The notes beneath the pieces were generated by a model that saw only the letters and a program-made list of their open reading frames with translations, ran no database searches and had not been told where the DNA came from. From positions 2,087 through 66,086 of the forward strand of contig JAXHTU010000002.1 in assembly GCA_034189955.1 (NCBI GenBank): a stretch of DNA of 64,000 nt, read 5' to 3'. Position 1 is the stretch's first letter. Every line of letters starts with the position of its first letter. Shown here in pieces: positions 1,691-22,484 of the stretch. Position numbers and translations under genes: made by a program. Origin of the DNA: Pseudomonadota bacterium (lineage in GTDB: Bacteria > Pseudomonadota > Alphaproteobacteria > Caulobacterales > Caulobacteraceae).

Positions 1691-3162
<1,472 letters not shown>

Positions 3163-3165
3163 GCC

Positions 3166-3726: not shown

Positions 3727-3731
3727 AGCCT

Positions 3732-3750: not shown

Positions 3751-3754
3751 GTCG

Positions 3755-6016: not shown

Positions 6017-8218
6017 ATGGCGATCTATCCGGTGATCATGTGCGGCGGGGCCGGCTCGCGCCTTTGGCCGGCGTCGCGACCGGGCCGACCGAAGCAGTTT
6101 CTCTGTCTCGCCGGAAAGCAGTCCCTGTTCCAGCAAACCGCCCTCAGGGTCGCCCCCCTGGTCGAGGACGACGGCCAGTTGATCGTCGTCGCCGGCGAAC
6201 GACACGCCGGGGCGGTGGTCGAGCAGCTGGCTGCGATCGGCCTGCGAGCGACGCTCCTGCTTGAGCCCGAGGCGCGCGACTCGGGACCCGCCATGGCCGC
6301 CGCCGCCGCATGGATCGCCCGCCGCGATCCCGAGGGCGTGGCCGCCATCATCGCGTCCGATCACCATATTCCCGACGCGGCCGCTTTCCGTTCGGCCATT
6401 GTCACCGCCGCCGGGGAAGCCCGCAAAGGTCGCATCGTCACCCTCGGCGTCACGCCGACGGCGCCGTCGTCCGCCTATGGCTATATTCGTCCCGGCGGCG
6501 CCGGACTGTCGCCCGTCGACAGCTTCGTCGAAAAACCCGACGCGGCGACGGCGGCGGCCTATGTGGCCGACGGATATCTGTGGAACAGCGGCAACTTCAT
6601 CGTCCTTGCGCAGGCGCTGATGGACGAGATCGCCGTCCATGCCCCGGCGATGGGCGAGGCCGTGCTCGCGGCCCTTGAGGGCGGCGATGATCGGCGGACC
6701 GTGCGGCTGAACGAGGCTTTCCGACGCGCGCCCAAAATCTCCATCGACTATGCGGTGATGGAGAAGAGCGACCGGACGTCGGTGCTGCCGGTCGATTTCG
6801 CCTGGTCGGATCTCGGCGCCTGGGACGCGGTCCAGGCCACCGGCCTCGGCGCCTCGGGCCGGCATCTGGCGATAGACAGTCCGGACTGCCTGGTGCGGGC
6901 CCCGGCCGGGACGCTCGTGGCCACCCTCGGCGTCGCCGGGCTGGCGATTATCGTCGAACCGGACGCGGTTCTCGTCTGCGCCCTCGATCGCGCCCAGGAG
7001 GTCAAGGGCCTGGTCGACCGGGTCAAGATCGAGGCGACGGACCATGCCGACATTCCGCAGGCGACCCTCACGGCGCCCTTCGCCCGCTTCGGCGACTGGA
7101 TGCGAACCTCGGCCCTGCCCCTCTGGGCCACGCTGGGCTTCGACGAGAACGGGAGCGCGGTCGAGGTCCTGTCGACAGACGGCCGCCCCGGAGACAGCCC
7201 CCGTCGCGCCCGGGTGCAGAGCCGGCAGATCGTGGTCTTCTGCCATGCCGGCGCGCTCGGCTGGCGCGGTCCGTGGCGGTCCCGGGTGGAAGCCGGGCTC
7301 GAGCATCTGCTCGGACGCTATCTTCGCGCGGACGGCTTCGTCCGCAACGCCCTGGCGGCGGACGGGTCGATCCATGACGACACCGCCCCGCTCTACGAGC
7401 AGGCCTTCGCCCTGCTGGCGCTGTCGCAGGCCCACGCCATGGGCGTCTCGACCGACCGGTGCGAACACCACGCCGCGCGGATGCTCGACTGGCTGATGGC
7501 GACCCGGCTGCCGGCCGGCGGCTGGGAGGAAATCGGCGAGCATCGCTTCCAGGCCAACGCCAACATGCACCTGTTCGAGGCGGCCCAGGCTTGGGCGGCC
7601 CGCGGCGTCGACCCGCGATGGGACGTCGTGGCCGAAGAGATCGCCGGTCTGGCGATGGATCGCTTCATCGACCCGGCGCACGGGCTGTTGCGCGAATTCT
7701 TCGACGCCGACTGGCGGCCCGTCGCCGGTCCGGATGGGCGCCGGGTCGAACCGGGGCATCAGTTCGAATGGTGCTGGCTTCTGTCCCGTTATGGCAAGAC
7801 GCGCGGCGACACGCGGGCGCTCGCCGTCGCGCGGCGGCTGTACGCCGTCGGTCTGGAAGGCGTCGATCCGGCCCGCAAGGTGGCCGTCGACGAGTTGGAC
7901 GACACCCTCGCGGTGCGCTCCGCCCGTGCTCGGCTGTGGCCCCAGACCGAATGGCTGCGCGCCGCCCTTGTGATGGCGGCCGAAACCCAAGGCGACGCCC
8001 GCGCCCGTCATCTTGCCGAGGCGCACCAGGCGATGCAGACGCTGGACGGCTATCTTCTCGCCAACGGATCCTGGCGCGACAAACGGCGGGCCGACGGCGG
8101 CTATGTCGACGAGGCGGCGCCCGCGAGCTCGCTCTATCACATCATGGGCGCCTTCGATCAGGTGTGCCTGGCCACCGCCGAAGGCTTGCTCGCCGAGGGC
8201 TCTCAAGGGTTGCAATAG
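6017..8218 (+). CDS. manC: Mannose-1-phosphate guanylyltransferase fused to an AGE-family epimerase/isomerase
   Basis: PVIMCGGAGSRLWPASR, FVEKPD, WNSGNF, SIDYAVME, WSDLGAW; C-terminal half has RARVQSRQ, NANMHLFEA, EPGHQFEW, RLWPQTEW; ATG follows GGAGG. Confidence 0.85.
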   Translation: MAIYPVIMCGGAGSRLWPASRPGRPKQFLCLAGKQSLFQQTALRVAPLVEDDGQLIVVAGERHAGAVVEQLAAIGLRATLLLEPEARDSGPAMAAAAAWIARRDPEGVAAIIASDHHIPDAAAFRSAIVTAAGEARKGRIVTLGVTPTAPSSAYGYIRPGGAGLSPVDSFVEKPDAATAAAYVADGYLWNSGNFIVLAQALMDEIAVHAPAMGEAVLAALEGGDDRRTVRLNEAFRRAPKISIDYAVMEKSDRTSVLPVDFAWSDLGAWDAVQATGLGASGRHLAIDSPDCLVRAPAGTLVATLGVAGLAIIVEPDAVLVCALDRAQEVKGLVDRVKIEATDHADIPQATLTAPFARFGDWMRTSALPLWATLGFDENGSAVEVLSTDGRPGDSPRRARVQSRQIVVFCHAGALGWRGPWRSRVEAGLEHLLGRYLRADGFVRNALAADGSIHDDTAPLYEQAFALLALSQAHAMGVSTDRCEHHAARMLDWLMATRLPAGGWEEIGEHRFQANANMHLFEAAQAWAARGVDPRWDVVAEEIAGLAMDRFIDPAHGLLREFFDADWRPVAGPDGRRVEPGHQFEWCWLLSRYGKTRGDTRALAVARRLYAVGLEGVDPARKVAVDELDDTLAVRSARARLWPQTEWLRAALVMAAETQGDARARHLAEAHQAMQTLDGYLLANGSWRDKRRADGGYVDEAAPASSLYHIMGAFDQVCLATAEGLLAEGSQGLQ

Positions 8219-8318
8219 GGCCGCGTTTCTCGGCGCTTGACCCGCTGGCGGGTGACCGCCTCTATTCAACCGCCATTCGCGGCTCTATTAGGCCCCTTCA
8301 TAACGTCAGAGACCCCAA

Positions 8319-9113
8319 GTGATCGATCTGCACTGCCATATCCTGCCAGGGATCGACGATGGCGCGCCGGATCTCGAGACGGCGCTGGCCATGGCGCGCA
8401 TCGCCGTCGCCGACGGCATAACCGTCACCGCCTGCACGCCTCACATGATGCCGGGCTATTACGAGAACACCGCCGACGGCGTGCGCGCCGCGGTCGTCGC
8501 CCTGCAGGACGAACTCGACAAGGCTGACATTCCGCTTCGCCTCGTCACCGGGGCCGACGTCCATCTGGTTCCGGGGCTGGCCTCGGGTCTCCGGGACGGC
8601 TCCAAGCTGACCCTGGCCGACACCCGCTATTTCCTGTTCGAACCGCCCCACACCACCGCCCCGCCGCGAATGGCGGACGCCGTGTTCGACTGCATGGCGG
8701 CGGGCTTTCACCCCCTGATCACCCATCCCGAGCGGCTGCGGTGGATCGAGGATCACTATGAGCTGATGGTGCAGATGGCGGGCGCGGGCGCCTGGATGCA
8801 GATCACCGCCGGGTCGGTGACCGGCCGCTTCGGCAAGCGGACCCAATACTGGGCCGAACGCATGCTCGACGAGGGGATCGTCCACATTCTCGCCACCGAC
8901 GCCCACAACCTCAGAAGCCGGTCCCCGGTCCTGTCGGAAGCGGTCGAGGCGGTCACCCTCAGACTTGGCGAGCAGGCGGCGCTCGACATGGTGTTGACCC
9001 GCCCCCTCGCCGTGCTCGAAAATGCCATGCCCGCCTCGGTTCCCGCCGCGGTTGGCGCTCCTCGCCAGGCTTCGCGGCCCAGCTTCTTCAAACGGCTGTT
9101 CAAGGCCGCCTGA
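8319..9113 (+). CDS. CpsB/CapC-type PHP-fold protein-tyrosine phosphatase
   Basis: MIDLHCHILPGIDDG, ACTPH, ITHPER, ATDAHN. Confidence 0.9.
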   Translation: MIDLHCHILPGIDDGAPDLETALAMARIAVADGITVTACTPHMMPGYYENTADGVRAAVVALQDELDKADIPLRLVTGADVHLVPGLASGLRDGSKLTLADTRYFLFEPPHTTAPPRMADAVFDCMAAGFHPLITHPERLRWIEDHYELMVQMAGAGAWMQITAGSVTGRFGKRTQYWAERMLDEGIVHILATDAHNLRSRSPVLSEAVEAVTLRLGEQAALDMVLTRPLAVLENAMPASVPAAVGAPRQASRPSFFKRLFKAA

Positions 9114-9124
9114 AACTCAAGGTA

Positions 9125-9829
9125 ATGTCGCCCATGACGCGCGCGCTTTCGCTGGCCCTGACCGCCTCGACCCTCGTTCTCGCCGCCTGTGGCGGACCGA
9201 AAATGAACGTGGCCGAGATGACCGCCGCACAACCCTTCGATCTGCAGTCGATGTCGCCCTCGACGACGACCCTGGCCGAATACCGCATCGGCGTCGGCGA
9301 CAAGCTGAACGTCAGGGTGTTCCAGGTGGCTGACCTGTCGTTCGACGAACTGACCGTCGACAGCTCCGGCGATCTGCAGATGCCACTGATCGGCGCGGTG
9401 CGCGCCAGCGGACAGACGGCCGGAGAGTTGTCGGCGGACATCGCCCGTCGGCTCAGCGCCGACTATCTGCGCAATCCGCAGGTCACGGTCACCGTCATGG
9501 AGGCCGCGAGCCAGAAGATCACCATTGACGGCGCGGTCACCAAGCCGGGCGTCTATGAGATGCGCGGCGCCACCTCCCTGCTGCAGGCGGTGGCCATGGC
9601 CGAGGGCCCCAGCCGCGTGGCCGACCTCGAAAAGGTCGCCGTCTTCCGCACCATCGACGGCCAGCGCTCGGTCGCCCTGTTCGATCTCGCCGCCATTCGT
9701 CAGGGCCGGGCCGTGGACCCGCGCGTTCTGGGCGACGATGTGATCGTGGTCGACACGTCGCGGATGGGTGTCGCCATGCGCGAGATCGTCGGCGTCCTGC
9801 CGGCCCTCGCGATCTTCCGTCCGTACTGA
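9125..9829 (+). CDS. wza: Polysaccharide export outer-membrane lipoprotein (Wza/GumB/HfsD family)
   Basis: Lipobox LAAC; YRIGVGDKL, MPLIGAV, YLRNPQV, GAVTKPGVY, GDDVIVV. Confidence 0.85.
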   Translation: MSPMTRALSLALTASTLVLAACGGPKMNVAEMTAAQPFDLQSMSPSTTTLAEYRIGVGDKLNVRVFQVADLSFDELTVDSSGDLQMPLIGAVRASGQTAGELSADIARRLSADYLRNPQVTVTVMEAASQKITIDGAVTKPGVYEMRGATSLLQAVAMAEGPSRVADLEKVAVFRTIDGQRSVALFDLAAIRQGRAVDPRVLGDDVIVVDTSRMGVAMREIVGVLPALAIFRPY

Positions 9830-9834
9830 TCGTC

Positions 9835-10857
9835 GTGAAGGGGCGCGGAGGCCTGCTGGTCGCGGCGTCGCTGGCCCTGGCGCTGGCCACGGCCGGCTGC
9901 GGCCACCCCGGGCCGGACGCCCCCACGCCACCTCTGAGCGACAGCCCGGCCGCCCGGCTGGAGGGCCTGACGCAGCTGGACGTCCGGGTCGCCAATGTCG
10001 CCTGGCGGCTGGCGCTGGCGAACGCCGACCTGTGCCCCGTCAACCATCCGCGGGCGGGTTGGACCCTGCAATCGGCCAATCAGTACGGCGCGGAGCTGCG
10101 TCCGCTGGCCATCCGTCGATACGGCCTCGAGGGCGATCTCCCGGGCGTTCTGGCGGCGCCGCCGGACAGTCCGGCCGCGCGCGCCGGACTGGCCCCGGGC
10201 GACCTCATCCTCGCCGTCGACGGACGGACGCTGGCGCCGGGCGCGGCGGGAGCCGAGTCCTACGACGGGCTTGAAGCCAATCTGGCCGTGCTGGACGCCG
10301 CGCTTTCAAGGGGGCCGGCGCGTCTCTCGGTCCGTCGCGACGGCGTCGTGCGCGAGGTCCGGCTCGATCCGGTTCTCGCCTGCGCCAATCCGGCCGAGGT
10401 CAGGGTCGGCGGCGGGTCCGCGGCCATATCGCGGACCGGCCGAATTCTGGTGCCCGCCGACATGGCGACCCTGGCGGAGACGGACGATCAACTCGCCTTC
10501 CTGATCGCCCACGAGCTCGCCCATGCGGTTCTGGAGCATTCGCCGCCGCCGGCGCAGCCTGGAGTGCGCGGCGCGGCGAACGCCCGCCTGACCCTGCGCC
10601 GCGGACGGACGGGCGGGGCCGAGGCGGACGCCGATCGCCTCGGCCTCTATCTGCTCGCGCGGGCGGGTTTCGACGCCCGTCTCGCGACCGAATTTCTCGT
10701 GCGCTTCGCCGAACAGCAGAGCCTGCCGGATTCACCCCAGATCAGCCTGGTGAGCGGCAGTCTCTACCGCTCGCCCAACGGCCGGCGCCGGGCCTTGCAG
10801 CCGGTGATTGAGGACATCGCCGCCCGCGCGGCCGCCGGACGCGACCTCATCCCGTGA
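9835..10857 (+). CDS. Lipoprotein with a PDZ-like domain and M48-family zinc metallopeptidase domain
   Basis: Lipobox TAGC; PDZ-like SPAARAGLAPGDLILAVDG; AFLIAHELAHA (HExxH); EADADRLGLYLLARAGF. Confidence 0.8.
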   Translation: MKGRGGLLVAASLALALATAGCGHPGPDAPTPPLSDSPAARLEGLTQLDVRVANVAWRLALANADLCPVNHPRAGWTLQSANQYGAELRPLAIRRYGLEGDLPGVLAAPPDSPAARAGLAPGDLILAVDGRTLAPGAAGAESYDGLEANLAVLDAALSRGPARLSVRRDGVVREVRLDPVLACANPAEVRVGGGSAAISRTGRILVPADMATLAETDDQLAFLIAHELAHAVLEHSPPPAQPGVRGAANARLTLRRGRTGGAEADADRLGLYLLARAGFDARLATEFLVRFAEQQSLPDSPQISLVSGSLYRSPNGRRRALQPVIEDIAARAAAGRDLIP

Positions 10858-10965
10858 TCGATGCGCCTCCTCAAGCGGAATTCGTGTGCGCCGGAGGAGC
10901 CTTTGCGATATCAGCCTCCAACCTGACGGCCGGCGGTCACCGACCGCCAAACGTGTGAGCGATTT

Positions 10966-13242
10966 ATGATGCTGGGCGATCCCCCCCATTCCGCAGACGA
11001 GCGAAACCTCCGCGCCCACCGGGCCTCCGGCGCTTTCGGAGAGGCGGCATTCGAGGATGGCTCGTCGGCCACCTGGGCCGAAGAGTTCCAGGAGGCGCCC
11101 GGTTTCGACCTCGCGGTCTACTGGCGTCTGGCGCTCAAGCACCGGATCCTGATCATCGGCTGCTTCCTCGGCGCCCTGGCCATCGGCGCGGCCGTGACCC
11201 TGCTGATGACGCCGATCTACACCGCCACGGCCACCGTGCAGATCGACCGCGAAGCCGCCCGCGTCGTCACGTCCGAGGACGTCACGCCGCGCGAAAGCAT
11301 GAGCCAGGGCGAGGAATTCTTCCAGACCCAGTACGGCCTGCTGCGCAGTCGCTCTCTGGCTGAACGCGTCGTCGAAAGCCTCGGCCTCGGCAGCTCGGAC
11401 CAGGCGTTGGCGACGCTCGGCGTCGAACCGCCGGAGCGCTTCGGTTCCGCGGCCGCCCAGGCGGAACGCCGCCGCAACATGGCCCTCGAGGTCGTCCAGG
11501 ACGGGCTCGGCGTCACGCCCGTGCGCGGTTCGCGCCTGGTCGCGGTCAGCTTCGACAATCCGGATCCGGTGGTCGCCGCCCGCGTCGCCAACGCCTTCGC
11601 CGAGAATTTCATCCAGTCGAATCTGGATCGCAAATACGAAAGCTCATCCTACGCCCGGGAATTCCTCGAAGAGCGCATCGCCCAGACCAAGGGCCGTCTC
11701 GAGGACGCCGAGCGCCAGCTGGTCACCTATGCGGCCAACCAGGAAATCATCAACGTCGGCGGCAGCGCCGATGAAAGCGACACCAACAGCGGTCCGACCC
11801 AGTCCCTCGCCTCGAACAACCTCGTGGCCCTGAACAGCGCCCTCGCCCGCGCTCGCGCGGACCGGGTGGCGGCCGAGGAAAAATGGCGTTCGGCGCGCAC
11901 CAACTCGCTGATGACCCTGCCGGAGGTGCTGGAGAACCAGTCGATCCAGCGGCTTAGCGAACAACGCGCCGAACTCGACGCCGAGTATCAGCAGAAGCTG
12001 AGCATCTACCAGGACGACTACCCCGAGATGGTCCGCCTGCGCGCGCAGATCAATGAGATCGAAGGGCAGGTCCAGACCCTGGCCGCCAACATCCGCCGTT
12101 CGATCCAGAACGAGTACACCGTGGCCGCCAGCGAGGAACGCTCGCTGCAGGCCCAGGTCAACGGCCTGAAGGGCGATGTCCTCGACCTGCGCGACCGGTC
12201 GATCCAGTACAACATCCTTCAGCGCGAACTCGACACCACGCGGACGCTCTACGAGAGCCTGCTGCAGCGCTACAAGGAAATCGCCGTCACCGGCGACGTC
12301 ACCGCCAACAACATCTCCATCGTCGACAGCGCCCGGCCCCCGGCCGCGCCGTCCAAGCCGAACCTGCTGATCAATCTTGTGCTCGCGGCCCTGTTCGGCC
12401 TCGGCCTCGGGGTGGTCGCCGCCCTCGTGCTGGAAGCTCTGGACGAGACCCTGGCCAGCCCCGACGACGTCGAGAAGAAGCTCGGGGTTCCGGTGCTTGG
12501 CGTCGTGCCGCTGCTGGACAAGGGGCAGACCACCGCCGCCGCCCTGGCCGATATCCGGTCCGGCTTCTCCGAGGCCTACTATTCGCTGCGAACCGCCTTG
12601 CAGTTCTCCACGCCCGACGGCGCGCCCTCCAGCCTGCTGGTGTCCAGCGCCCGGCCGGCCGAGGGCAAGTCGACCACCGCCTACGCCGTGGCGCTCAATC
12701 TGGCGCGCGTCGGCAAGCGGGTGCTGCTGATCGACGGCGACCTGCGCAACCCCTCCATGCACCGCGTGGTCGGCGTCGACAACGAACGCGGCATGAGCAA
12801 TCTGCTGTCGGGCTCGTCGGACCTGCAGAGCGTCGTCCAACGCACCCGCCAGGACAATCTCTTCTTCATCCCCTGCGGCCCCCTGCCGCCCAACCCCGCG
12901 GAACTGTGGGGCAGCGACCGCCTGCGCCAGTTCCTCGCCGAGGCGCGCGAAAGCTTCGACCATGTCGTGGTCGACGGCCCGCCGGTGCTCGGCTTCGCGG
13001 ACTCCCCGCTGCTGGCGGCGACCGTCGGCGGCGTCCTGTTCGTGCTGGAGTCGCGCGGCACCCGCCGCGGCCAGGCCAAGGGCGCCCTGCGCCGGCTCCA
13101 GGTCGGCCGCGCCCGTCTGCTGGGCGCCGTCCTGACCAAGTTCAACGCCAAGGCGACGTCCTACGGCGGGTATGACTACGCGTACGACTACAATTACGGG
13201 GCGGAAGGCGAGCCGCAGGCGCGGAAGGACAAGAAGGCTTGA
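10966..13242 (+). CDS. wzc: Polysaccharide co-polymerase / BY-kinase (Wzc/GumC)
   Basis: Two TM segments flanking a coiled-coil periplasmic domain; Walker A SARPAEGKST, LLIDGDLR, VVVDGPPVLG; Tyr-rich tail YGGYDYAYDYNY. Confidence 0.92.
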   Translation: MMLGDPPHSADERNLRAHRASGAFGEAAFEDGSSATWAEEFQEAPGFDLAVYWRLALKHRILIIGCFLGALAIGAAVTLLMTPIYTATATVQIDREAARVVTSEDVTPRESMSQGEEFFQTQYGLLRSRSLAERVVESLGLGSSDQALATLGVEPPERFGSAAAQAERRRNMALEVVQDGLGVTPVRGSRLVAVSFDNPDPVVAARVANAFAENFIQSNLDRKYESSSYAREFLEERIAQTKGRLEDAERQLVTYAANQEIINVGGSADESDTNSGPTQSLASNNLVALNSALARARADRVAAEEKWRSARTNSLMTLPEVLENQSIQRLSEQRAELDAEYQQKLSIYQDDYPEMVRLRAQINEIEGQVQTLAANIRRSIQNEYTVAASEERSLQAQVNGLKGDVLDLRDRSIQYNILQRELDTTRTLYESLLQRYKEIAVTGDVTANNISIVDSARPPAAPSKPNLLINLVLAALFGLGLGVVAALVLEALDETLASPDDVEKKLGVPVLGVVPLLDKGQTTAAALADIRSGFSEAYYSLRTALQFSTPDGAPSSLLVSSARPAEGKSTTAYAVALNLARVGKRVLLIDGDLRNPSMHRVVGVDNERGMSNLLSGSSDLQSVVQRTRQDNLFFIPCGPLPPNPAELWGSDRLRQFLAEARESFDHVVVDGPPVLGFADSPLLAATVGGVLFVLESRGTRRGQAKGALRRLQVGRARLLGAVLTKFNAKATSYGGYDYAYDYNYGAEGEPQARKDKKA

Positions 13243-14510
13243 GGGACCGCGCGGACGCCGCCGCCCCGGCCGCCCGACCGAAAGGCCGGATGGGGGAATA
13301 CGCCCCCTATGTCCTGACGGTCGGGGCGATATGGCTGGGCTGGCAGATCCTGCTTCAGCCGGTCATCCAGCGCGCGCCGCCCGAGATCTCGGTTCGCGTC
13401 GCTCCGGGCTCGCCGATGGTGCTGAGACGCGCCGCCGAGGCGGAACTGGTCGCCGGACATGCGAACGAAGACGCGCGCCGGTTCGAGAACGCCGCCGTCC
13501 TCGCCCGCGAATCCCTGGCCCGCGCGCCCTTCAGCGTCCGCGCCCTGCGCGTCATCGGCCTGGCGGAGGCCCGCGCCGGCCGCGAGGCCGCCGCCAACGA
13601 CATCCTGACCCTCGCCGGCAACTGGAGCCTTCGCGACGATCCCGCCCACGCCTGGCTGGTCGACCATCGGCTGAAGCGGGGCGACTACGCCTCGGCCTTC
13701 GCCCACGCCGACACCCTCGTCCGCCGGCGCGAGGATATCCGGCCGCAGGTGTTCCGCCTGTTCACCGTCGCCGCCACCCATGACACCGCCCGCGCCCTGC
13801 CCGAGGTGGCGCGCCTGCTGGCCCTGGGCCCGCCATGGCGGCAGACCTATCTCGACAGCCTGTACGAGAACGTCGAGGGGTTGCAGGTCGCGGTCAACCT
13901 CGCCGTCCTGCTGCAGCACACCAAGGCGCCGCTGAGTAATGCGGAACTGACCCAGTTCTACATGCACCTGCTCGACAAGGGTCAGATCCAGGCGGTCAGG
14001 ACCGTGCGTGAACGCCTCAACCGGCCGCCCGCGGCGCCGATCTCCAACGGCGGCTTCGGCGATCCGGCCGCCCCCCAGCCGTTCCAGTGGCGGCTGGCCC
14101 AGGAGGTCGGGGCCGTGGTCGAGATCGTGCCCGACGAGATTCGTCCGTCCGACCCGGCGTTGCGGATTGCCTACGACGGCTATTCGACCGTGCAATTCGC
14201 GGAACAGTTGTTGCTGCTGTCTCCGGGGCGCTATCGGCTGACGGCCCAGGTGCGGGCCGAAGCCGGCGAGCCGTCCGAGCATCTGATCTGGTCCGTGACC
14301 TGCGCGCCCGGCGACCTGCGCATCCTCTCGGCCCCCGCCATCGGTCCGTCGGCGACGGCTTGGGGCCCGCTGTCGCTGGATTTCACCGTGTCCGAGGCCT
14401 GCGTCGGTCAGTGGCTGCGACTCGAAAGCCGCGGCGGCGACCGGCGCAAGTCGAACGTGGCCTGGATCGACCGGGTCGCCATCACCCCGCTTTCGGCCGT
14501 CCGGAACTGA
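13239..14510 (+). CDS. Membrane-anchored TPR-like protein with a C-terminal carbohydrate-binding-like beta domain
   Basis: N-terminal TM, helical repeats, ISNGGF..FQWRL beta-sandwich-like C-terminus; GTGA overlap with the wzc stop. Confidence 0.6.
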   Translation: MRDRADAAAPAARPKGRMGEYAPYVLTVGAIWLGWQILLQPVIQRAPPEISVRVAPGSPMVLRRAAEAELVAGHANEDARRFENAAVLARESLARAPFSVRALRVIGLAEARAGREAAANDILTLAGNWSLRDDPAHAWLVDHRLKRGDYASAFAHADTLVRRREDIRPQVFRLFTVAATHDTARALPEVARLLALGPPWRQTYLDSLYENVEGLQVAVNLAVLLQHTKAPLSNAELTQFYMHLLDKGQIQAVRTVRERLNRPPAAPISNGGFGDPAAPQPFQWRLAQEVGAVVEIVPDEIRPSDPALRIAYDGYSTVQFAEQLLLLSPGRYRLTAQVRAEAGEPSEHLIWSVTCAPGDLRILSAPAIGPSATAWGPLSLDFTVSEACVGQWLRLESRGGDRRKSNVAWIDRVAITPLSAVRN

Positions 14511-14642
14511 TGTCGATTACCGCTCCGGAGACGGCCGTTGGCGGGAAATCGTATTGATTTCGAAACAATCGCCGCTTATACCGCTAGGCGATACATCGCG
14601 GGCCCGCCCGTATAAAAGTCCTGTTTAGAAGGGGATCTACAT

Positions 14643-14867
14643 ATGCGTAAGACCATCGCCGCTGTCACGGCGGGCCTGCTGCTCGTCGCCGGCCAAGCCG
14701 CCGCCGCCAACAACTCCGCCGTCACCCGCGTCGGCGACCGCGTGGGCGCCAACGCCGACGCCTCGTCGGAATTCGCCGGCGTTCCGCTCCCGGTTCTGCT
14801 GATCGGCGCCGCCGTGATCGTGGCCACCGCCGTGGTCATCAGCGAAGACGACTCGGAAAGCGACTAA
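14643..14867 (+). CDS. 74-aa protein: signal peptide, short polar linker, C-terminal TM helix, acidic tail
   Basis: MRKTIAAVTAGLLLVAGQAAA signal; VPLPVLLIGAAVIVATAVVIS TM; EDDSESD tail; AAGGGG RBS; host-like codon usage. Confidence 0.75.
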   Translation: MRKTIAAVTAGLLLVAGQAAAANNSAVTRVGDRVGANADASSEFAGVPLPVLLIGAAVIVATAVVISEDDSESD

Positions 14868-14912
14868 ACCGACCTGGTTCGCGTTTCGCCAGCTTCTGAG
14901 CCGACTTAGCGC

Positions 14913-16268
14913 GTGCCAATCAAGGTTCTGAAGGGCCAGTGGGATCTCGTCGCGATAGCGGCGATCGTCCTGCTGGCCTTTTCTGTTGTTCTGGGCGGAG
15001 CCAGCAGCGATCACGTGCTGCGCCTGGCGATCGTCCAGTTGGCGGCCCTGCCGCTGCTGGTTCTGGGCGCGGGGCGTCTGATACGGTCGGGCCAATGGCG
15101 CGAGCATCGCTTCGCTCTGGGCCTTGTCGTCGCTCTGACGGCCATACCCCTGATCCAGTTGATTCCCCTTCCGCCCGCCGTCTGGACCGGACTGGCGGGC
15201 CGTGAAGAGATGGTTCTGGCGCTGGAGCTGGCCGGGGTGCGGCCGGGCTGGGCTCCGCTCAGCCTCACGCCCGACCTGACCTGGGGATCCGCCCTCGCCC
15301 TGATCCCGCCCGTCGCGGTCTTTCTGGCGGTCCTGACGACGCCGCATACCCTGACAACCCGCCTCGTCCACGTCTATCTGATCGCCGCCGTCGCCGGCGT
15401 GCTTCTGGGCGCGGCCCAGCTGGCGAGCGGCGGCGAGCGCCTCTATCCGTGGGAAACCACCAGCGCCGGCTCGGTGACCGGCTTCTTCGCCAACCGCAAC
15501 CATCTCGCCACCCTGCTGCTGGCCTGTCTGCCGTTCGCCGCCGTCTTCGGCGCCGCCACGATGCGTCGGCGAGCCGACGACCGGCGCCTGGCGCTCTGGT
15601 TTGGCGCCCTGTTCATGGGCCTGGTGATCATCGGACTGGCCGCCATCCGCTCGCGCGCCGGCGTCATCCTGATCGGCCCGGCCGCGGTCGCCAGCCTGCT
15701 CGCCGCCTGGATCGCGGCGGGCCGCGGCCGCCCCGCGCCCGGACTGATCGCCCTGGCGGGGGCGGTGGCCGCGGCGGTCGCCGTCGTGGCGGTGATCGCC
15801 CTGCCGCCGATCCTCGCCCGCTTCGACGCCCAGAGCGCGCCCGAGGGCCGGTTCGAGGCCTGGCCGATCGTGGCCGGCGCCGCCGACGCCTATCTGCCGC
15901 TGGGTTCGGGAATCGGCAGTTTCGACGCTGTCTTCCGGTCGGTCGAGCCGCTGGAACAGCTGGATCCCACCTTCTTCAACCACGCCCACAACGACTATCT
16001 GGAAACCTGGCTCGAGGCCGGCTGGCCGGGGGCGATCCTGATCATCGCCTTCCTCGTCTGGTACGGCCGCCGGCTCTGGAGCGCCTGGCGGGCCGGCACG
16101 TCGCGCGAGCGCGACCTGCAGCGGGCGGCGAGCATCGCCCTGCTGGTCATGCTGGTCCATTCCGCGGCCGACTATCCATTGCGCACGGCGACCCTGGCGG
16201 TTCTGTTCGCCCTGTGCGTCGCGATCCTCGAGAAGGCGGGTCAGCCGACCGCGCGCGAGCTGGCCTGA
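14913..16268 (+). CDS. O-antigen ligase / Wzy_C family membrane protein
   Basis: Multiple TMs; GFFANRNHLA, SRAG, GSGIGSF, NHAHNDYLETWLEAG, DYPLRT. Confidence 0.85.
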   Translation: MPIKVLKGQWDLVAIAAIVLLAFSVVLGGASSDHVLRLAIVQLAALPLLVLGAGRLIRSGQWREHRFALGLVVALTAIPLIQLIPLPPAVWTGLAGREEMVLALELAGVRPGWAPLSLTPDLTWGSALALIPPVAVFLAVLTTPHTLTTRLVHVYLIAAVAGVLLGAAQLASGGERLYPWETTSAGSVTGFFANRNHLATLLLACLPFAAVFGAATMRRRADDRRLALWFGALFMGLVIIGLAAIRSRAGVILIGPAAVASLLAAWIAAGRGRPAPGLIALAGAVAAAVAVVAVIALPPILARFDAQSAPEGRFEAWPIVAGAADAYLPLGSGIGSFDAVFRSVEPLEQLDPTFFNHAHNDYLETWLEAGWPGAILIIAFLVWYGRRLWSAWRAGTSRERDLQRAASIALLVMLVHSAADYPLRTATLAVLFALCVAILEKAGQPTARELA

Positions 16269-16277
16269 CCGCAGACC

Positions 16278-16862
16278 TCAGCCGGGCGACCCGGCCATCG
16301 GCTCGAGTCCGGACAGCGGCGTCGCCGCCACCGGTTCCGGCAACGCCTCGCGCCACGCCGCCGCCGGGTTCAGCGCCGCCGTGGCTTCCAGAAACGTTCC
16401 AGGCTTCATCGACGGCTCCGGGGCCGTGCGCAGGCCGGCGATCCGCGCCAGATCGGCGATGAAGGTGATGCAGTTGCGCCGCCGCAGGTCATAGACCGAG
16501 CCTTCGGGACTGTTCCACCACTCGGCCCGGGCCTTCAACGCGTGCCAGGTGGCGTCGTCGACCGTCAGCGTCAGGAACGGCTTGCCCTCGTCGACATAAC
16601 GGGCGTCCGGCTCGGTCACCACGCCGCCGCCGCGCACGAACAGCAAATGCGGCCCGGGGCTGCTGGCCGTGAAGCCCGCCGCCCAGTCGACCGGCTCCCC
16701 CGTCGCCTCCTCGGTCCCTTCGGCATGCACATAGGCGTGGGGGAACAGCAGATAGCCGCCCCGCACCCGCGCCCCGGGGTGGGCGTAGAAGGTCACCGTC
16801 ACCTCGGCCCAGGCGTGGCCGGCGATGAGGGCCAGAAGAGCCCCCAGGACCCATGCGCGCAT
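16278..16862 (-). CDS. Secreted protein with a permuted papain-like (H...NC) signature
   Basis: Signal peptide MRAWVLGALLALIAGHAWA; FPHAYV and YDLRRRNCITF resemble the His and NC motifs of LRAT/PPPDE-like enzymes. Confidence 0.6.
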   Translation of the reverse strand: MRAWVLGALLALIAGHAWAEVTVTFYAHPGARVRGGYLLFPHAYVHAEGTEEATGEPVDWAAGFTASSPGPHLLFVRGGGVVTEPDARYVDEGKPFLTLTVDDATWHALKARAEWWNSPEGSVYDLRRRNCITFIADLARIAGLRTAPEPSMKPGTFLEATAALNPAAAWREALPEPVAATPLSGLEPMAGSPG

Positions 16863-16972
16863 ACTGTGTCTCCGTGCCGCCCGGACCGATGATGACGGAC
16901 CCTCCGGAACGCGCAAGGGCCGCCGGGGATGCGCTCCCCGACGGCCCTTGTTCCGCATCCGCCGATGGGTGG

Positions 16973-18505
16973 TCAGTGCGAGGCGGGCGCCGCCACCACG
17001 TCGGCGCTCCGGGTCCGCGTCCGCGCGGCGGCCACGGCGAAGACCGTCAGCAGCACATAGCCGATCATCGGCACCACGAAGGCCATGTTCAGATTGCTCA
17101 GGTCCGCCACCCGGCCGCCGATCAACGGCAGGATCGCCCCGCCGATGATGGCCATGCACAGCAGGCCCGAGGTCGCCGACGCGCCGGCCGTCGACCGCTC
17201 CAGCGTCAGGGTGAAGATGGCCGGGAACATGATCGAGTTGAACAGACCCACGGCCAGGGCCGCGAACGCCGCGTTGACGCCTCCGGTCTGGCTGACGATC
17301 AGGCACAGCACGGCGGCGCAGGCGGTGCAGACGGACAGCAGAACGCCCGCCGGCACCCGCGTCAGGAAGGCGCTGCCGGCGAAGCGGCCCATCAGGGCGC
17401 CGGCCCAGTACAGCGCCACCAGCCGGCCCGCGTCGTGGATCGGCAGGCCCAGGGTGCGGTCCGAATGCAGCAGATTGGTCATCAGGCTGCCGATGGTCAC
17501 TTCCGACCCGACGTAGATGAAGATCGCGATGGCGCCGAACACGGCCCAGCGCGAGTTCAGCGCCTTGAGCGGCGACCCCGGAGTTTCCGCCGCCGCGCTG
17601 GCGGCGCTGGCCGAGGTCAGCTTGCCGCGCACCGTCCAGATGAAGGCGCCCAGCAGGGCGAAGAACACCGCCAGGCCGATGAAGATGGTGTCGATGTTGC
17701 GCAGGGTCGCGGCGCGCGCCGTTTCGTCCATCACCACCGGAGCCGCCTCCGCCGCCACGCTCGCCGCCGAGGCGGCGGCCGAGGCCGCATAGCCGCCCAT
17801 GCCGCCGACGTAGTTGTGCAGGAAGATCACCCAGCCGACGACCAGACCGGCCGCCGCGCCGACGACCAGCCAGCCCTTGACGTCCTTGCGCAGGGCGCCG
17901 ACCAGAAGCCCGGCGACAAGGCCGAAGCCGACGCCGAGCAAGATCAGCAACAGGGCCGTGGGGGACGCCAGGGCGCTGACGCCGCCGACGGCGAAGATGC
18001 CGCCCGAAAGCATGACCGTGGCGCCCAGCAGCGGCCCGACCACCGTGCCGAGGGAGTTGAAGGCCTGGGAGAACACCAGCCGGAAATGAGATCCCTTCGG
18101 CGTGCCCAGCGACGCCGCCAGCGGATTGGCCGCGACCTGCAACAGGGTCACGCCCGCGGCGATGACGAACAGGGCGACCAGCACCCCGGGGTAGAAGTCC
18201 ATGAGCGTGGACAGCGGCACGATCAGCGCGCCGAGGACCATCACCGCCAGCGCCCCGACGATCGACCTCGCATAGCCCAGCCGCGCCAGAAGCGCCGCCG
18301 CCGGCAGGGAGACCACGCCATAGGCGGTGAACCATGCGAACTGGGTCAGCAGGGCCTCGGTGAAATTCAGGTCGAACACGCCCTTCACCGCCGCGATCAG
18401 CGGGTCGATCAGCGCCGTGGCGAAGCCCCAGGCGAAGAACAGGGTGGTCACATAGGCGAAGGCGAGGGTCGTCCCTGCGCGCGCCGGCGTCTGTTGGTCG
18501 GTCAT
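16973..18505 (-). CDS. Glucose/galactose MFS transporter (GluP/FucP family)
   Basis: TTLFFAWGF, LLQVAANP, SQAFNSLGT, IFIYVGSEV, SIMFPAIF, MAIIGGA. Confidence 0.9.
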   Translation of the reverse strand: MTDQQTPARAGTTLAFAYVTTLFFAWGFATALIDPLIAAVKGVFDLNFTEALLTQFAWFTAYGVVSLPAAALLARLGYARSIVGALAVMVLGALIVPLSTLMDFYPGVLVALFVIAAGVTLLQVAANPLAASLGTPKGSHFRLVFSQAFNSLGTVVGPLLGATVMLSGGIFAVGGVSALASPTALLLILLGVGFGLVAGLLVGALRKDVKGWLVVGAAAGLVVGWVIFLHNYVGGMGGYAASAAASAASVAAEAAPVVMDETARAATLRNIDTIFIGLAVFFALLGAFIWTVRGKLTSASAASAAAETPGSPLKALNSRWAVFGAIAIFIYVGSEVTIGSLMTNLLHSDRTLGLPIHDAGRLVALYWAGALMGRFAGSAFLTRVPAGVLLSVCTACAAVLCLIVSQTGGVNAAFAALAVGLFNSIMFPAIFTLTLERSTAGASATSGLLCMAIIGGAILPLIGGRVADLSNLNMAFVVPMIGYVLLTVFAVAAARTRTRSADVVAAPASH

Positions 18506-18562: not shown

Positions 18563-18671
18563 ATCGTCATCGGGCCGCGTCCAGACGTTTTACCGGAACC
18601 GTAACCAAAAGTGGCCGCTATCCACAGCCGGGGCGGCCCGCGCTACGGTGGCGGCAAATCCGGGGACGAGC

Positions 18672-20297
18672 GTGACCTTACAGCATCGAGACATCCCGCC
18701 GGCCGGGATCGACGCCGCCGAATGGTGGCGCGGCGCGGTCGTCTATCAGGTCTATCCGCGCAGCTTCGCCGACAGCAACGACGACGGCGTCGGCGATCTG
18801 AGGGGTGTCACGGACCATCTCGACCACATCGCCTCGCTGGGCGTCGGCGCCGTCTGGCTGTCGCCCTTCTTCACCTCGCCGATGAAGGATTTCGGCTACG
18901 ACGTGTCCGACTACCGCGACGTCGATCCGGTCTTCGGCCAGCTCGCCGACTTCGACGCCCTGATCGCCCGGGCGCACGACCTGGGCCTGAAGATCATCAT
19001 CGATCTGGTGTTCGCCCACACCTCGGACCAGCACGCCTGGTTCCACGAGAGCCGCCAGTCGCGCGCCAATCCAAAGGCCGACTGGTACGTCTGGGCCGAC
19101 GCGAAGGAAGACGGTACGCCGCCGTCGAACTGGCAGTCGGTGTTCGGCGGCCCGGCCTGGACCTGGGACGCCCGGCGCGGCCAGTACTACATGCACAACT
19201 TCCTGCCGGAGCAGCCGCAGCTGAACCTTCACCTGCCGGCGGTGCAGGACGCCCTGCTGGACGTGGCCCGCTTCTGGCTCGACCGCGGCGTCGACGGCTT
19301 CCGCTTCGACGCGATCAATTTCGCCATGCACGACCCCCTCCTGCGGGACAATCCGCCCCTCCCGCCCGGCGGCAAGCGGACCCGGCCGTTCGACTTCCAG
19401 GACAAGGTCCACAACCAGTCGCAGCCTGAGATCCCCGACTTCCTCAAACGCATCCGCGCCCTGACCGACCGCTATGGCGGCCGCTTCAGCGTCGCCGAGG
19501 TCGCCGGCGACCACCCCGAGGCCGAGATGCAGGCCTTCACCGCCGGCGAAGCGCATCTCAACAGCGCCTACGGCTTCCTCTACCTCTACGCCCCGACCTT
19601 CTCCGATCAGCTGGCGCGGCAGGGGGCCGAGACCTGGCACGGCCGCGACGGCCAGGGCTGGCCGTCCTGGGCCTTCTCCAACCACGACGCGCCGCGCGCC
19701 GTCTCGCGCTGGGCCGGCGGGCGCGACCCGCGCGCCTTCGCCGGCATGGCCATGCTGTTGCTGATGTGCCTGCGCGGCAACGTCTTCGTCTACCAGGGCG
19801 AGGAGCTGGCCCTGCCCCAGGCCGAGGTGCCGTTCGACCGGCTGGTCGATCCCGAGGCCATCGCCAACTGGCCCCAGACCCTCGGACGCGACGGCGCCCG
19901 CACGCCGATGCCATGGGCGGCCGACCAGCCCCACGCCGGCTTCTCCAGCGCCGAACCGTGGCTGCCGGTCGACCCGCGTCACCTCGCCCTCGCCGTCGAC
20001 CGGCAGGAGGCCGATCCGTCGTCCATGCTCCACCTGACCCGGCGTCTGGTCGCCCTGCGCAAGGCCCATCCGGCCCTGACCCGCGGCGAGATGCGCCTGC
20101 TGGACGCCCCTCCGGGCCTGCTGTGCTTCGAACGCGCGCTGGCCGGCGAGCGGCTGCTGTGCGTCTTCAACACCGTCGAACAGGCCCTCGACTGGACCGC
20201 CCCCCACGGCTGGCGAGTGATCGAGGCCGTCAATCTGCCCGCCGAGCCCGGCGGCCGCCTGCCGCCCACGGCCGGGCTGGTGCTCGCCCTCGACTGA
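18672..20297 (+). CDS. GH13 alpha-glucosidase / oligo-1,6-glucosidase (start may be GTG 18648)
   Basis: WWRGAVVYQVYPRSF, DFGYDVSDY, DLVFAHTS, GFRFDA, SNHD, YQGEEL, GRDGARTPMPW. Confidence 0.92.
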   Translation: MTLQHRDIPPAGIDAAEWWRGAVVYQVYPRSFADSNDDGVGDLRGVTDHLDHIASLGVGAVWLSPFFTSPMKDFGYDVSDYRDVDPVFGQLADFDALIARAHDLGLKIIIDLVFAHTSDQHAWFHESRQSRANPKADWYVWADAKEDGTPPSNWQSVFGGPAWTWDARRGQYYMHNFLPEQPQLNLHLPAVQDALLDVARFWLDRGVDGFRFDAINFAMHDPLLRDNPPLPPGGKRTRPFDFQDKVHNQSQPEIPDFLKRIRALTDRYGGRFSVAEVAGDHPEAEMQAFTAGEAHLNSAYGFLYLYAPTFSDQLARQGAETWHGRDGQGWPSWAFSNHDAPRAVSRWAGGRDPRAFAGMAMLLLMCLRGNVFVYQGEELALPQAEVPFDRLVDPEAIANWPQTLGRDGARTPMPWAADQPHAGFSSAEPWLPVDPRHLALAVDRQEADPSSMLHLTRRLVALRKAHPALTRGEMRLLDAPPGLLCFERALAGERLLCVFNTVEQALDWTAPHGWRVIEAVNLPAEPGGRLPPTAGLVLALD

Positions 20298-20408
20298 GCC
20301 CGTCGCCGCTCACGTTTGGTTTCCCGCCATGGTCCGGCCGCCGGATTTGCGGCAAACCTCTCGCCGTCGCGCGGGGCCGCGCGGCCCTGTTTGCGTGGAG
20401 TGAGCCCG

Positions 20409-22484
20409 ATGCTGAACCGCCGGTCGTTGATGTCGGGAACCGCCGCCCTGTCGGCCCTGCCCGCCGCCGCGGCCGCCCAGGACGCCGTCCCAACCGGACC
20501 CCAGCCTGGCGCGGCGAGCGCCGCCTCGCCCGACGGCGTCCTCTCCGTCGAGCTGACCGCCGACAAGGACGGCTTCGTCGCATACGCCGTCAGCCGCCTC
20601 GGCCGCCCGGTGATCGCCCCCTCGCGCCTCGGCTTCCTGCTCACCGACGCCCGCAAGCTGGAGCGCGCCTTCGGCATCCTGTCACAGACCGTCACCAGCC
20701 ATGACGACACATGGGAGCAGCCTTGGGGCGAGCGGCGTTTCGTCCGCAACCGCTACACCCAGCTGCGCGTCGAACTGCAGGAGCGCTGGGGCCTGATGCG
20801 GCGGATGAACGTCGTGTTCCGCCTCTATGACGACGGCCTCGGCTTCCGCTGCGAGTTCCCGCAACAGCCCAATCTGGCCACCGTCAGCATCGGCGCCGAG
20901 CTGACCGAGTTCACCGTCGCCGATCCGGGCACGGCCTGGTGGCTGCCCGCCTTCGAGTACAACCGCGCCGAATATCTCTACAACCGCACCGACATCGACG
21001 CGGTCGGCGTCAGCCAGACGCCGCTGACGATGCGGCTGCAGGACGGCACCCACCTGTCGATCCACGAGGCCGCCCTGGTCGACTACGCCGGCATGAACCT
21101 GCGCCGGGTCGAGGGCGGCAAATTCCGCGCCATGCTGACCCCCGGCCTGACCAGCGCCGCCGTCGTGCGCGAGACGCCGTTCCACACCCCGTGGCGCACC
21201 CTGCAGATCGCCGACCAGGCCGGCGGCCTCGTCGAATCCAGCCTGATCCTGAACCTCAACGAGCCGAACAAACTGGGCGACGTCAGCTGGTTCCGGCCGA
21301 TGAAATACATCGGCATCTGGTGGGACATGCACCTCGACACCCGCAGCTGGAATTCGGGACCGAAGCACGGCGCCACCACCGACTACACCCTGCGCCACAT
21401 CGATTTCGCGGCCGAGCACGGCTTCGGCGGCGTGCTGGTCGAGGGCTGGAACGTCGGCTGGGACGGCGAATGGTTCGGCGCGGGCTGGGACTACAGCTTC
21501 ACCGAGGCCTATCCCGATTTCGACATCGAACGCGTCGCCGCACACGCCCGGGCCAAAGGCGTCGAGATCGTCGGCCACCACGAGACCGGCGGCAACGCCT
21601 TCCACTACGAACAGCAACTCGACGCCGCCTTCGGCCTGATGCAGCGGCACGGCTGGCATACGGTCAAGACCGGCTATGTCGCCGACGCCGGCGGGGCCCA
21701 TGTCACCGGCCCGGACGGCAAGGCGCATCTGGCCTGGCACGAGAGCCAGCCGATGGTCCGCCACCACCAGACGGTGGTCGAGACCGCCGCCCGCTATCAG
21801 GTCGCCGTCAACGCCCACGAGCCGGTCAAGGACACCGGCCTGCGCCGGACCTGGCCCAACACCATCACCCGCGAGGGCGCGCGCGGCATGGAGTACGCCG
21901 CCTGGGGCCAGCCGGGCAATCCGCCGGAGCACGAGGTCAATCTGGTCTTCACCCGCCTGCTGGCCGGACCCATGGACTACACGCCGGGCGTCTTCGGCAT
22001 GGAGACCCGGGTCCCCGGCGGGGTGCAGACCACCTGGGCCAAACAGCTGGCCCTCTATGTGACGATCTACAGCCCGATCCAGATGGCCGCCGACCTGCTG
22101 GAGAACTACGAGGCTAATCCCGGCCCGTTCCAGTTCATCAAGGATGTCGCCGTCGACTGGTCCGACACCCGGGTGCTGAACGGCGCGGTCGGGGATTACG
22201 TCACCATCGCCCGCAAGGACCGCAACTCGGACGAATGGTTCCTCGGCGCCATCACCGACGAGCAGCCGCGCGTCCTCACCGCCCCGCTGGCCTTCCTCGA
22301 CCCCGGCCGTCGCTACCGCGCCGAGATCTACGCCGACGCGCCCGGCGCGGACTATCGGACCAACCGCGAGGCGATCGACATCACCACCCGCGAGGTCGCC
22401 TCGGCCGACATCCTGACCCTGCGCCTCGCCCCCGGCGGCGGCCAGGCCATCCGCTTCGTTCCGCTGGGTCGGGCGCGCCGCTGA
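20409..22484 (+). CDS. GH97 glycoside hydrolase (SusB-like alpha-glucosidase) with a Tat signal
   Basis: MLNRRSLMSG twin-arginine signal; KYIGIWW, VLVEGWN, GHHETGG, TREGARGMEY, GPMDYTPG. Confidence 0.92.
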   Translation: MLNRRSLMSGTAALSALPAAAAAQDAVPTGPQPGAASAASPDGVLSVELTADKDGFVAYAVSRLGRPVIAPSRLGFLLTDARKLERAFGILSQTVTSHDDTWEQPWGERRFVRNRYTQLRVELQERWGLMRRMNVVFRLYDDGLGFRCEFPQQPNLATVSIGAELTEFTVADPGTAWWLPAFEYNRAEYLYNRTDIDAVGVSQTPLTMRLQDGTHLSIHEAALVDYAGMNLRRVEGGKFRAMLTPGLTSAAVVRETPFHTPWRTLQIADQAGGLVESSLILNLNEPNKLGDVSWFRPMKYIGIWWDMHLDTRSWNSGPKHGATTDYTLRHIDFAAEHGFGGVLVEGWNVGWDGEWFGAGWDYSFTEAYPDFDIERVAAHARAKGVEIVGHHETGGNAFHYEQQLDAAFGLMQRHGWHTVKTGYVADAGGAHVTGPDGKAHLAWHESQPMVRHHQTVVETAARYQVAVNAHEPVKDTGLRRTWPNTITREGARGMEYAAWGQPGNPPEHEVNLVFTRLLAGPMDYTPGVFGMETRVPGGVQTTWAKQLALYVTIYSPIQMAADLLENYEANPGPFQFIKDVAVDWSDTRVLNGAVGDYVTIARKDRNSDEWFLGAITDEQPRVLTAPLAFLDPGRRYRAEIYADAPGADYRTNREAIDITTREVASADILTLRLAPGGGQAIRFVPLGRARR

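Follow-up and report, generated by a model that had tools for sequence, protein, structure and literature searches.

Export core of a Brevundimonas capsule or exopolysaccharide locus with a candidate glycan scaffold and a lipoprotein peptidase accompanied by a 74-aa membrane protein

Introduction

Wzy-dependent capsule export is well understood in Escherichia coli and much less so in Alphaproteobacteria. In Caulobacter crescentus, the capsule locus CCNA_00162-00168 encodes a short Wza, a PHP-type phosphatase, Wzc and a Wzy_C "polymerase/ligase", a second polymerase and a flippase are encoded outside the conserved locus, and both the Wzy_C protein and the second polymerase are required for the capsule (Ardissone et al. 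2014, PMC4241560). The same locus holds the gene of a protease-like protein, the BTLCP HvyA, and CCNA_00162, a 422-aa protein of unassigned role whose gene adjoins wzc, is essential for the capsule (PMC4241560). In the present work, a stretch of 64,000 nucleotides (the window) on contig C112 (G+C ~70%) of a Brevundimonas genome (3.16-Mb assembly, 95% complete) was analyzed, with the interval from 9835 to 16862 in focus. Its genes read as the conserved and largely ordinary core with which a Wzx/Wzy-dependent capsule or exopolysaccharide locus assembles and exports its polymer. Four of its products are given short names here: a PDZ-M48 lipoprotein (M48PDZ), a 423-aa protein (X423), a 74-aa protein (small74) and a 194-aa secreted protein (sec194). 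The explanation that we favor, and to which we give even chances, is an ordinary Wzy-type core in which X423 would serve as a glycan scaffold and to which M48PDZ and small74 would be added to tune or police the machine, as a protease with its substrate or its adaptor.

C. crescentus belongs to the same bacterial order, and the locus resembles its capsule locus in the short Wza, PHP phosphatase, Wzc, Wzy_C protein and internal protease-like gene. It differs in that the protease is the BTLCP HvyA there and a PDZ-M48 protein here, and no 74-aa protein has been described in C. crescentus. CCNA_00162 and X423, compared by description only, are alike in size (~420 aa) and in adjacency to wzc; a homologue search seeded with X423 of a Caulobacter sp. 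returned "hypothetical protein" entries only and no C. vibrioides protein, and a search of the literature for CCNA_00162 yielded nothing beyond the 2014 description.

With the group 1 and group 4 systems of E. coli (Wza-Wzb-Wzc; gfcABCDE-etp-etk) the locus shares the outer membrane polysaccharide export (OPX) protein, the kinase of polysaccharide co-polymerase class 2a (PCP-2a), the phosphatase and Wzy-dependent assembly. Unlike in E. coli, Wza lacks the long C-terminal outer-membrane helix domain and the phosphatase is of PHP type, and the E. coli capsule operons contain neither a protein with tetratricopeptide repeats (TPR) and a carbohydrate-binding module (CBM) nor an M48-PDZ protein. In E. 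coli, a small protein with a signal peptide, of the GfcA/YjbE type and without a known function, is likewise a product of the group 4 operon. A further comparison is offered by XrtA/PEP-CTERM loci, in which exopolysaccharide is coupled to the processing of proteins that end in a transmembrane (TM) helix, an idea that the present gene set recalls. The EpsE/EpsF/EpsG-type export genes of such loci are the nearest NCBIfam names for Wza and Wzc here, and these loci include the TPR protein PrsT, to which the match here was weak (E 0.028). The present locus differs in having no exosortase, and small74 has no PEP motif, its tail is acidic instead of basic, and its C-terminal region is not a tag in the host genome or among 1.8 billion representative sequences.

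Among proteases, M48PDZ shares the HExxH...E..AD zinc site with BepA and its lipoprotein nature with LoiP/YggG, and it has a PDZ domain as do the C-terminus-sensing proteases DegS, RseP and Prc/CtpA, which cut small membrane regulators. The combination of PDZ and M48 in one capsule-locus lipoprotein of ~340 aa is unlike the characterized M48 and PDZ enzymes. The export system is standard, whereas no description of the TPR-CBM component, of the additional conserved Wzy_C protein or of the peptidase/small-protein pair was found in the libraries and literature searched.

Results

The Wza-Wzc-X423-Wzy_C core recurs across Caulobacterales

Coding frames were checked by third-position G+C (GC3), which picked out one co-directional gene string across the locus, and domains were assigned with Pfam and NCBIfam. 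The string runs on the forward strand from the phosphatase to the Wzy_C protein. All genes listed by an initial annotation of the DNA were found where it had placed them, namely an M48/PDZ lipoprotein between wza and wzc, the 74-aa protein, the Wzy_C protein and a convergent secreted protein.

X423 (13239-14510), whose TTG start codon overlaps the wzc stop codon, had no match in Pfam or NCBIfam, and its database relatives were all named "hypothetical protein". Its AlphaFold2 model (mean pLDDT 87) consisted of one TM helix, TPR-like repeats over ~200 residues and, at the C-terminal end, a beta sandwich. In Foldseek the sandwich best matched CBM4-2, CBM16 and CBM22 (E ~2e-6), and TPR proteins were also matched. 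Two Cys and several Trp of X423, among them Trp284 and Trp351, were invariant, and the sandwich holds invariant residues of both kinds. On this model, X423 lies in the periplasm, anchored in the inner membrane, and joins TPR-like repeats to a CBM-like C-terminal domain that is a candidate for sugar binding. The product had been noted as a TPR-like protein behind wzc; the repeats were borne out by the model, and the description has to be extended by the CBM-like module.

The distribution of X423 was followed in 37 genomes of the genus and in a locus sample of 70 species loci and 13 fetched same-genus loci. X423 was found in 15 of the 37 genomes, in a close form in 13 and in a distant form in 2. 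Strains with the close form of the locus include B. alba DSM 4736, B. lenta DSM 23960 and B. basaltis DSM 25335. The block wzc-X423-(small74)-wzyC was constant in the 13 fetched loci and in the 70 further species loci. A profile of X423 detected full-length or C-terminal relatives in Caulobacter and four other families of the Caulobacterales. Outside the genus, these relatives adjoined wzc with wzyC and wza nearby in nearly all fetched loci; three loci at a contig edge or rearranged (L107, L116 and L119) showed only part of the wza-wzc-X423-wzyC set. In many Caulobacterales loci wzyC followed X423 directly, and in three Caulobacter loci a gap of ~7 kb lay between them. Small74 and M48PDZ were missing from the loci of Caulobacter and the four other families. 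Since Wza, Wzc, X423 and Wzy_C recur together in several families, the four-gene core is an order-wide module and X423 its unrecognized conserved member. M48PDZ and small74 are, by the same comparison of loci, Brevundimonas additions to this core.

The remaining parts of the export core were of known types. The CpsB/CapC-type PHP tyrosine phosphatase (8319-9113; Pfam PF19567, E 2.5e-54) is the counterpart of the Wzc kinase; it supplies, as a PHP type, the phosphatase that a Wza-Wzc system requires, and it stays beside wza in window-type loci. Wza (9125-9829, 234 aa; Poly_export PF02563, E 1.2e-24, SLBB, lipobox LAAC) is the required OPX protein in a short form without long C-terminal domains, and its nearest NCBIfam names, EpsE and EpsY, both scored under their cut-offs. 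Short OPX proteins of this kind are thought to depend on another protein as their outer-membrane barrel; no such partner was seen within the window. Wzc (10966-13242; Wzz, GNVR, AAA_31) is the required PCP-2a co-polymerase and tyrosine autokinase. It scored 164.7 bits against TIGR01007 (cut-off 108) and carries a GKS/T Walker A motif and the C-terminal Tyr cluster YDYAYDYNY, with the tail SYGGYDYAYDYNYG.

M48PDZ and small74 occur together and side by side

Both M48PDZ and small74 were found in 15 of the 37 genus genomes, M48PDZ alone in one (G005), small74 alone in one (G021), and neither in 20. The close form of X423 was accompanied by both in all 13 genomes that have it. M48PDZ and X423 shared a contig in 11 of these 13, within ~16 kb of each other, and were split over separate contigs in G009 and G033, both of them fragmented assemblies. 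In the species loci, small74 was present in 60 of 70. Of the ten loci without it, five are distant and of B. vesicularis type, two are on truncated contigs and three belong to neither group. M48PDZ lay within 10 kb in 39 of the 70 and otherwise, according to whole-genome searches, 11-16 kb away in the same locus. The initial annotation had proposed a check of co-occurrence in other genomes, and its outcome was positive at two levels: X423 and Wzy_C occur together across Caulobacterales, and M48PDZ and small74 occur throughout the Brevundimonas lineages with the close form.

Gene order was given more weight than co-occurrence, as shared descent inflates the counts. Small74 was located between X423 and wzyC in 49 of the 70 loci and just after wzyC in three. 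It was found directly upstream of M48PDZ in L054, L056, L073 and G027, and directly downstream of it in L068, L070, L071, L079, L081, L084, G009, G013, G017 and G032; some of these adjacent genes were second copies. Where small74 was not next to M48PDZ, it lay beside X423 or wzyC, except in L051, in which it was not placed. On a tree of Wzc, the adjacency of small74 and M48PDZ fell in at least three separate lineages. Of all the evidence, this repeated adjacency speaks most strongly for a functional link of small74 to the peptidase.

M48PDZ is an apparently competent zinc peptidase

The gene of M48PDZ (9835-10857, forward strand; Pfam PDZ_6 and Peptidase_M48) starts 5 nt past the wza stop codon and ends 108 nt upstream of wzc. 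In the protein of ~340 aa, a lipobox with Cys22 and a Pro-rich linker precede a PDZ domain and an M48-like catalytic domain, with a match to PF01435 of 30.2 bits (cut-off 20.3). The zinc ligands of the M48 family, HExxH and a downstream Glu in E..AD, are present. Across 16 orthologues the lipobox was intact, and H226-E227-x-x-H230 (HELAH), E263, D267, C67 and C183 were invariant. The catalytic stretch is BepA-like and the PDZ domain matches those of CtpA, DegP and DegS. From these residues, M48PDZ looks catalytically competent.

Periplasmic PDZ proteases bind hydrophobic or aromatic C-termini, and Wza ends in such a sequence (...ALPALAIFRP[FY]), which is conserved throughout Caulobacterales. 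The Wza C-terminus was considered as a specific ligand of the PDZ domain and rejected, the hydrophobic end being present also in Caulobacterales lineages without M48PDZ.

Distant M48PDZ-like lipoproteins were seen in family f5, which belongs to the Caulobacterales with lower G+C. They occur there (L120-L123) as tandem pairs near fur, tsaB, rimI, trpS, murJ and glnD, and neither polysaccharide genes nor a small74-like neighbor were detected near these pairs. In two Brevundimonas genomes, the gene of a giant secreted protein of RTX/serralysin-like type lies divergent to that of M48PDZ (L127:5841-11261 in G023; L124:6097-11166 in G005). The protein is ~1700-1800 aa long and carries Peptidase_M10, 20 RTX repeats and PPC. 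G005 retains this gene pair although it has neither X423 nor small74.

Small74 is a conserved stand-alone membrane protein

Small74 (14643-14867, forward strand) has two hydrophobic segments. A strongly conserved N-terminal signal-like segment or TM1 is followed by a periplasmic RVGDRVGA motif, a TM segment and an acidic DDSESD tail. Synonymous codon changes exceeded nonsynonymous ones among the orthologues, which marks small74 as a real gene under purifying selection. The 1172 database homologues were all "hypothetical", with a Pfam domain in none of them, and small74 itself gave nothing better than E 0.3 against Pfam; as it matches no Pfam family, it is not a member of the YjbE/GfcA group. 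Residues R29-A36, F44 and G46 were invariant, distant members kept only D32-R33, and among the aligned homologues no invariant Ser, Thr or Asn was found in the periplasmic stretch. The N-terminal "signal peptide" was better conserved than the C-terminal TM segment, even among paralogues, which suggests that the first helix is retained or specifically recognized.

A profile of small74 searched against the 1.8 billion representatives gave 128 clusters at 50% identity, nearly all of them stand-alone proteins of 44-138 aa, with matches covering most of the length of each. The family is thus stand-alone and its tail is not shared by larger proteins, so that small74 is not a sorting tag. A scan of the host genome for endings of a TM segment plus acidic tail returned only three small74 paralogues, and the sole large profile match, P0193, proved to be a chance match to a repeated FRVGDRVRV motif.

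Two of the paralogues in the host genome are ~65-75% identical. One (C25:3249-3476) lies beside an HNH endonuclease, a transglutaminase-like protein and an M1 aminopeptidase, in a neighborhood that is syntenic in another species (L126), and the other (C124:17783-18004) lies beside a histidine-kinase-like gene and ilvC.

The region upstream of small74 (14555-14642) is AT-richer than its surroundings. It contains a strong AAGGGG Shine-Dalgarno-like site, a hairpin (GCGGG-N4-CCCGC) that is conserved ~25 nt ahead of the start codon, and the semi-conserved motif CGTATTG(A/C)TTT. These features suggest a separate, strong expression of the small gene. No known RNA element was found in 8000-17500, and a promoter/terminator scan gave nothing exceeding chance.

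The Wzy_C protein is conserved across loci with different sugar genes

The Wzy_C-family polytopic membrane protein (14913-16268, forward strand; PF04932, E 5.6e-18) has ~11 hydrophobic segments. Across species with differing sugar genes it was 46-85% identical, and its identity tracked that of Wzc. WaaL and PglL/PilO share with it the Wzy_C domain with a large periplasmic loop and conservation regardless of the glycan. It differs from them in that its sequence matched no solved structure (PDB) and no characterized oligosaccharyltransferase or ligase in NCBIfam. It is also the second Wzy_C protein in the genome; the other, at C101:27062-27505, is of a WaaL-like type that is the single or best Wzy_C match in every sampled genus genome and is probably the ligase of the lipopolysaccharide (LPS) O-antigen.

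In five loci, the variable region adds a Wzx-like protein and a further polytopic protein, one of which is a weak Wzy_C match. In the studied genome the contig ends ~2 kb upstream of the window, and the conserved Wzy_C protein is the only polymerase-type protein seen here, with no Wzx. Its conservation across glycans, the extra Wzy-like candidates and the parallel in Caulobacter together make a conserved, glycan-tolerant role plausible; the protein could plausibly be ligase-like, or could polymerize by reading the reducing end alone. Its apparent action in addition to serotype-specific polymerases makes it a possible capsule ligase. The earlier description of the gene as ligase-like therefore fits, a ligase rather than a polymerase role being plausible for a gene that is conserved like wzc while extra Wzx/Wzy-like candidates occur in five loci.

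sec194, the flanks and the sugar genes

The sec194 gene (16278-16862) is encoded on the reverse strand, as is the adjoining gene of a transporter of the major facilitator superfamily (MFS; 16973-18505). The protein has a signal peptide and invariant H42 and C131, and a short profile match across its N-C motif connected it to the TseH cysteine hydrolase 6v98 (E 1e-5), a type VI secretion effector. No Pfam match was found, and an AlphaFold2 model (pLDDT 75) gave no match in Foldseek. The gene had been described as a secreted, H..NC papain-like protein; the invariant His and Cys and the profile match agree with this, while the fold search does not add to it, and the papain-like label comes from the short profile match. 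The gene was present in 13 of the 37 genus genomes, largely carriers of the locus. Two genomes with the locus, G015 and G031, do not have the gene, and G021 carries it without having the locus. It always lay beside an MFS gene, at a distance from wzyC of 10 bp to ~9 kb. We regard sec194 as part of the chromosomal flank, outside the capsule module, and as a candidate permuted papain-like (TseH-like) Cys hydrolase.

An exosortase (PF09721) had been reported as not visible in the window, and the statement holds more widely, with no match in the whole 95%-complete genome. No BTLCP gene was found in the locus. The only gene of the family of HvyA (PF06035, Peptidase_C93) in the genome is unlinked, at C90:8038-8391.

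Upstream of the export core, 1-8218 holds sugar-precursor and initiation genes that belong to the same locus. They comprise, on the forward strand and by Pfam, a NeuC-like epimerase (1-1067), a PglD-like acetyltransferase (1070-1690), a CBS pair fused to a DegT aminotransferase (1687-3162), a PglC-like phosphoglycosyl transferase (3166-3726; Bac_transf, 186 aa, E 9.8e-58) and a fusion of GDP-mannose pyrophosphorylase (ManC) with an AGE-family, GlcNAc 2-epimerase-like domain (5897-8218). A PglF-like dehydratase (3755-5803) is encoded on the reverse strand. The Bac_transf protein supplies the initiating phosphoglycosyl transferase that a Wzx/Wzy system requires, and the ManC-AGE fusion was found again in many related loci.

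The variable region of another locus (L128; G023:C1:697000-716900) encodes NeuB-like and PseB/PseC-like proteins and a HisH/HisF-like amidotransferase pair of pseudaminic/legionaminic type, together with an initiating enzyme, a large Bac_transf protein, and a protein of 540 aa without a family. The G+C content of the region falls to 60%, in keeping with a serotype-specific part that is exchanged horizontally. Downstream of the MFS gene, an alpha-amylase-family enzyme and a glycoside hydrolase of family GH97 (18648-22484) are unrelated to the capsule locus and mark the chromosomal boundary in several species.

Discussion

The gene content and its conservation would fit the following course of assembly. 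X423 would bind the nascent glycan in the periplasm and scaffold it between Wzy_C and Wzc. The conserved Wzy_C protein would be a component of the machinery, either ligase-like or a polymerase of relaxed specificity, rather than a serotype-specific polymerase. M48PDZ would act on the short conserved periplasmic segment of small74, or on a complex containing small74, and would thereby tune or quality-control the Wzc/X423/Wzy_C machine, like the regulated proteolysis of small membrane regulators. M48PDZ and small74 are probably an accessory pair with a regulatory or quality-control role. That M48PDZ cleaves small74 specifically is a narrower proposal from the same comparisons, and we hold it only tentatively, with odds that lie against it.

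Several observations weigh against coupling the peptidase to the small protein. Co-occurrence within one genus is confounded by shared descent, and the association is not strict, with M48PDZ kept in G005 without X423 or small74 and five copies of small74 in G021 without M48PDZ. In the window the two genes are 3.8 kb apart, and M48PDZ stands beside wza in 24 of 39 loci, more often than beside small74. Paralogues of small74 occupy stable housekeeping neighborhoods, and relatives of M48PDZ in another family are lipoproteins in housekeeping contexts. The topology raises two further points: a peptidase sorted to the outer membrane may miss a periplasmic stub of 25 residues at the inner membrane, and the PDZ domain would not see the C-terminus of small74, which is cytoplasmic.

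Some of these points feed a different reading of the peptidase, in which M48PDZ is a quality-control or maturation protease for the outer-membrane exporter, Wza or its partner, in the manner of BepA and LoiP, and small74 is an independent subunit or modulator of Wzy_C or Wzc that merely belongs to the same operon set. The position directly after wza in those 24 loci, which come from several clades, speaks for it, as do the BepA-like catalytic stretch, a Wza C-terminus suited to a PDZ domain and the usual place of small74 between X423 and wzyC. We nevertheless judge it unlikely, given that a similar Wza C-terminus exists across Caulobacterales without M48PDZ, that the phyletic pattern links M48PDZ to small74 and not to Wza, and that relocated small74 genes land beside M48PDZ in at least three lineages. 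It is more improbable still that M48PDZ and small74 are passengers, general envelope genes in a recombination-prone locus with no role in the polysaccharide. The several copies of small74 with their stable housekeeping-context paralogues, the retention of M48PDZ in G005, which lacks the locus, and the housekeeping contexts of M48PDZ relatives elsewhere would all suit passengers. They are to be set against the proximity of M48PDZ to X423 in 11 of 13 genomes, the other two being split over contigs, the tight co-directional packing of M48PDZ between wza and wzc, and the fixed slot of small74 between X423 and wzyC in most species.

The idea from which the follow-up started was a protein-anchored glycan, in which the Wzy_C protein, as ligase or O-oligosaccharyltransferase, places the polymer on small74 and the M48 peptidase processes or releases the anchor. 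A conserved, glycan-unspecific Wzy_C protein with other Wzy-like candidates in the variable regions would suit it, and small74 is encoded directly upstream of wzyC in most loci, the sugar genes of the window are of the PglC/D/E/F type that is used in protein-glycosylation systems too, and no exosortase competes for the role. Yet small74 makes a poor acceptor. The conserved Ser/Thr in an exposed low-complexity stretch expected of a PglL/PilO acceptor was not found in it, its exposed stretch having no invariant Ser, Thr or Asn and only D32-R33 in distant members, and it has paralogues outside polysaccharide loci. Wzy_C and X423 occur without small74 in most of the Caulobacterales and in the B. 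vesicularis-type loci, the presence of Wza and Wzc implies that a free polymer of high molecular weight is exported, and an inner-membrane anchor would be distant from the cell surface. Small74 as glycan acceptor is thus not sustained, and we consider this arrangement very unlikely; slightly less likely again is a variant of it, an exosortase-independent protein-anchored capsule with a Wzy_C ligase, small74 or X423 as the anchor and M48PDZ trimming or releasing it. We give the smallest chance of all to an on/off switch like HvyA, by which sec194, with or without the M48 enzyme, would remove or block the capsule in a regulated way. The protein is secreted, has the invariant His and Cys and the profile match to a cysteine hydrolase, occurs largely in carriers of the locus and abuts M48PDZ in G023 and G026. 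On the other side, it is always paired with an MFS gene at a variable distance from wzyC, its presence does not follow that of the locus in G015, G031 and G021, its model gave no fold match, and 6v98, the nearest solved relative, is not known to be tied to capsules. Moreover, sec194 is not a BTLCP, and the sole BTLCP gene of the genome lies on another contig. The analogy to HvyA, raised for this gene at the outset, is therefore weak, as sec194 is a flank gene beside an MFS transporter.

In Caulobacter, several required genes of the conserved capsule locus are still without a mechanism, and the protein with a TM helix, TPR-like repeats and a CBM-like domain that lies between Wzc and Wzy_C across Caulobacterales is a candidate glycan-handling scaffold. 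In Brevundimonas, the protease and the tiny membrane protein could control capsule assembly after translation in a way that is new. The scaffold, the Wzy_C protein and the protease pair do not overturn the known picture, and each is a testable, uncharacterized part of capsule assembly.

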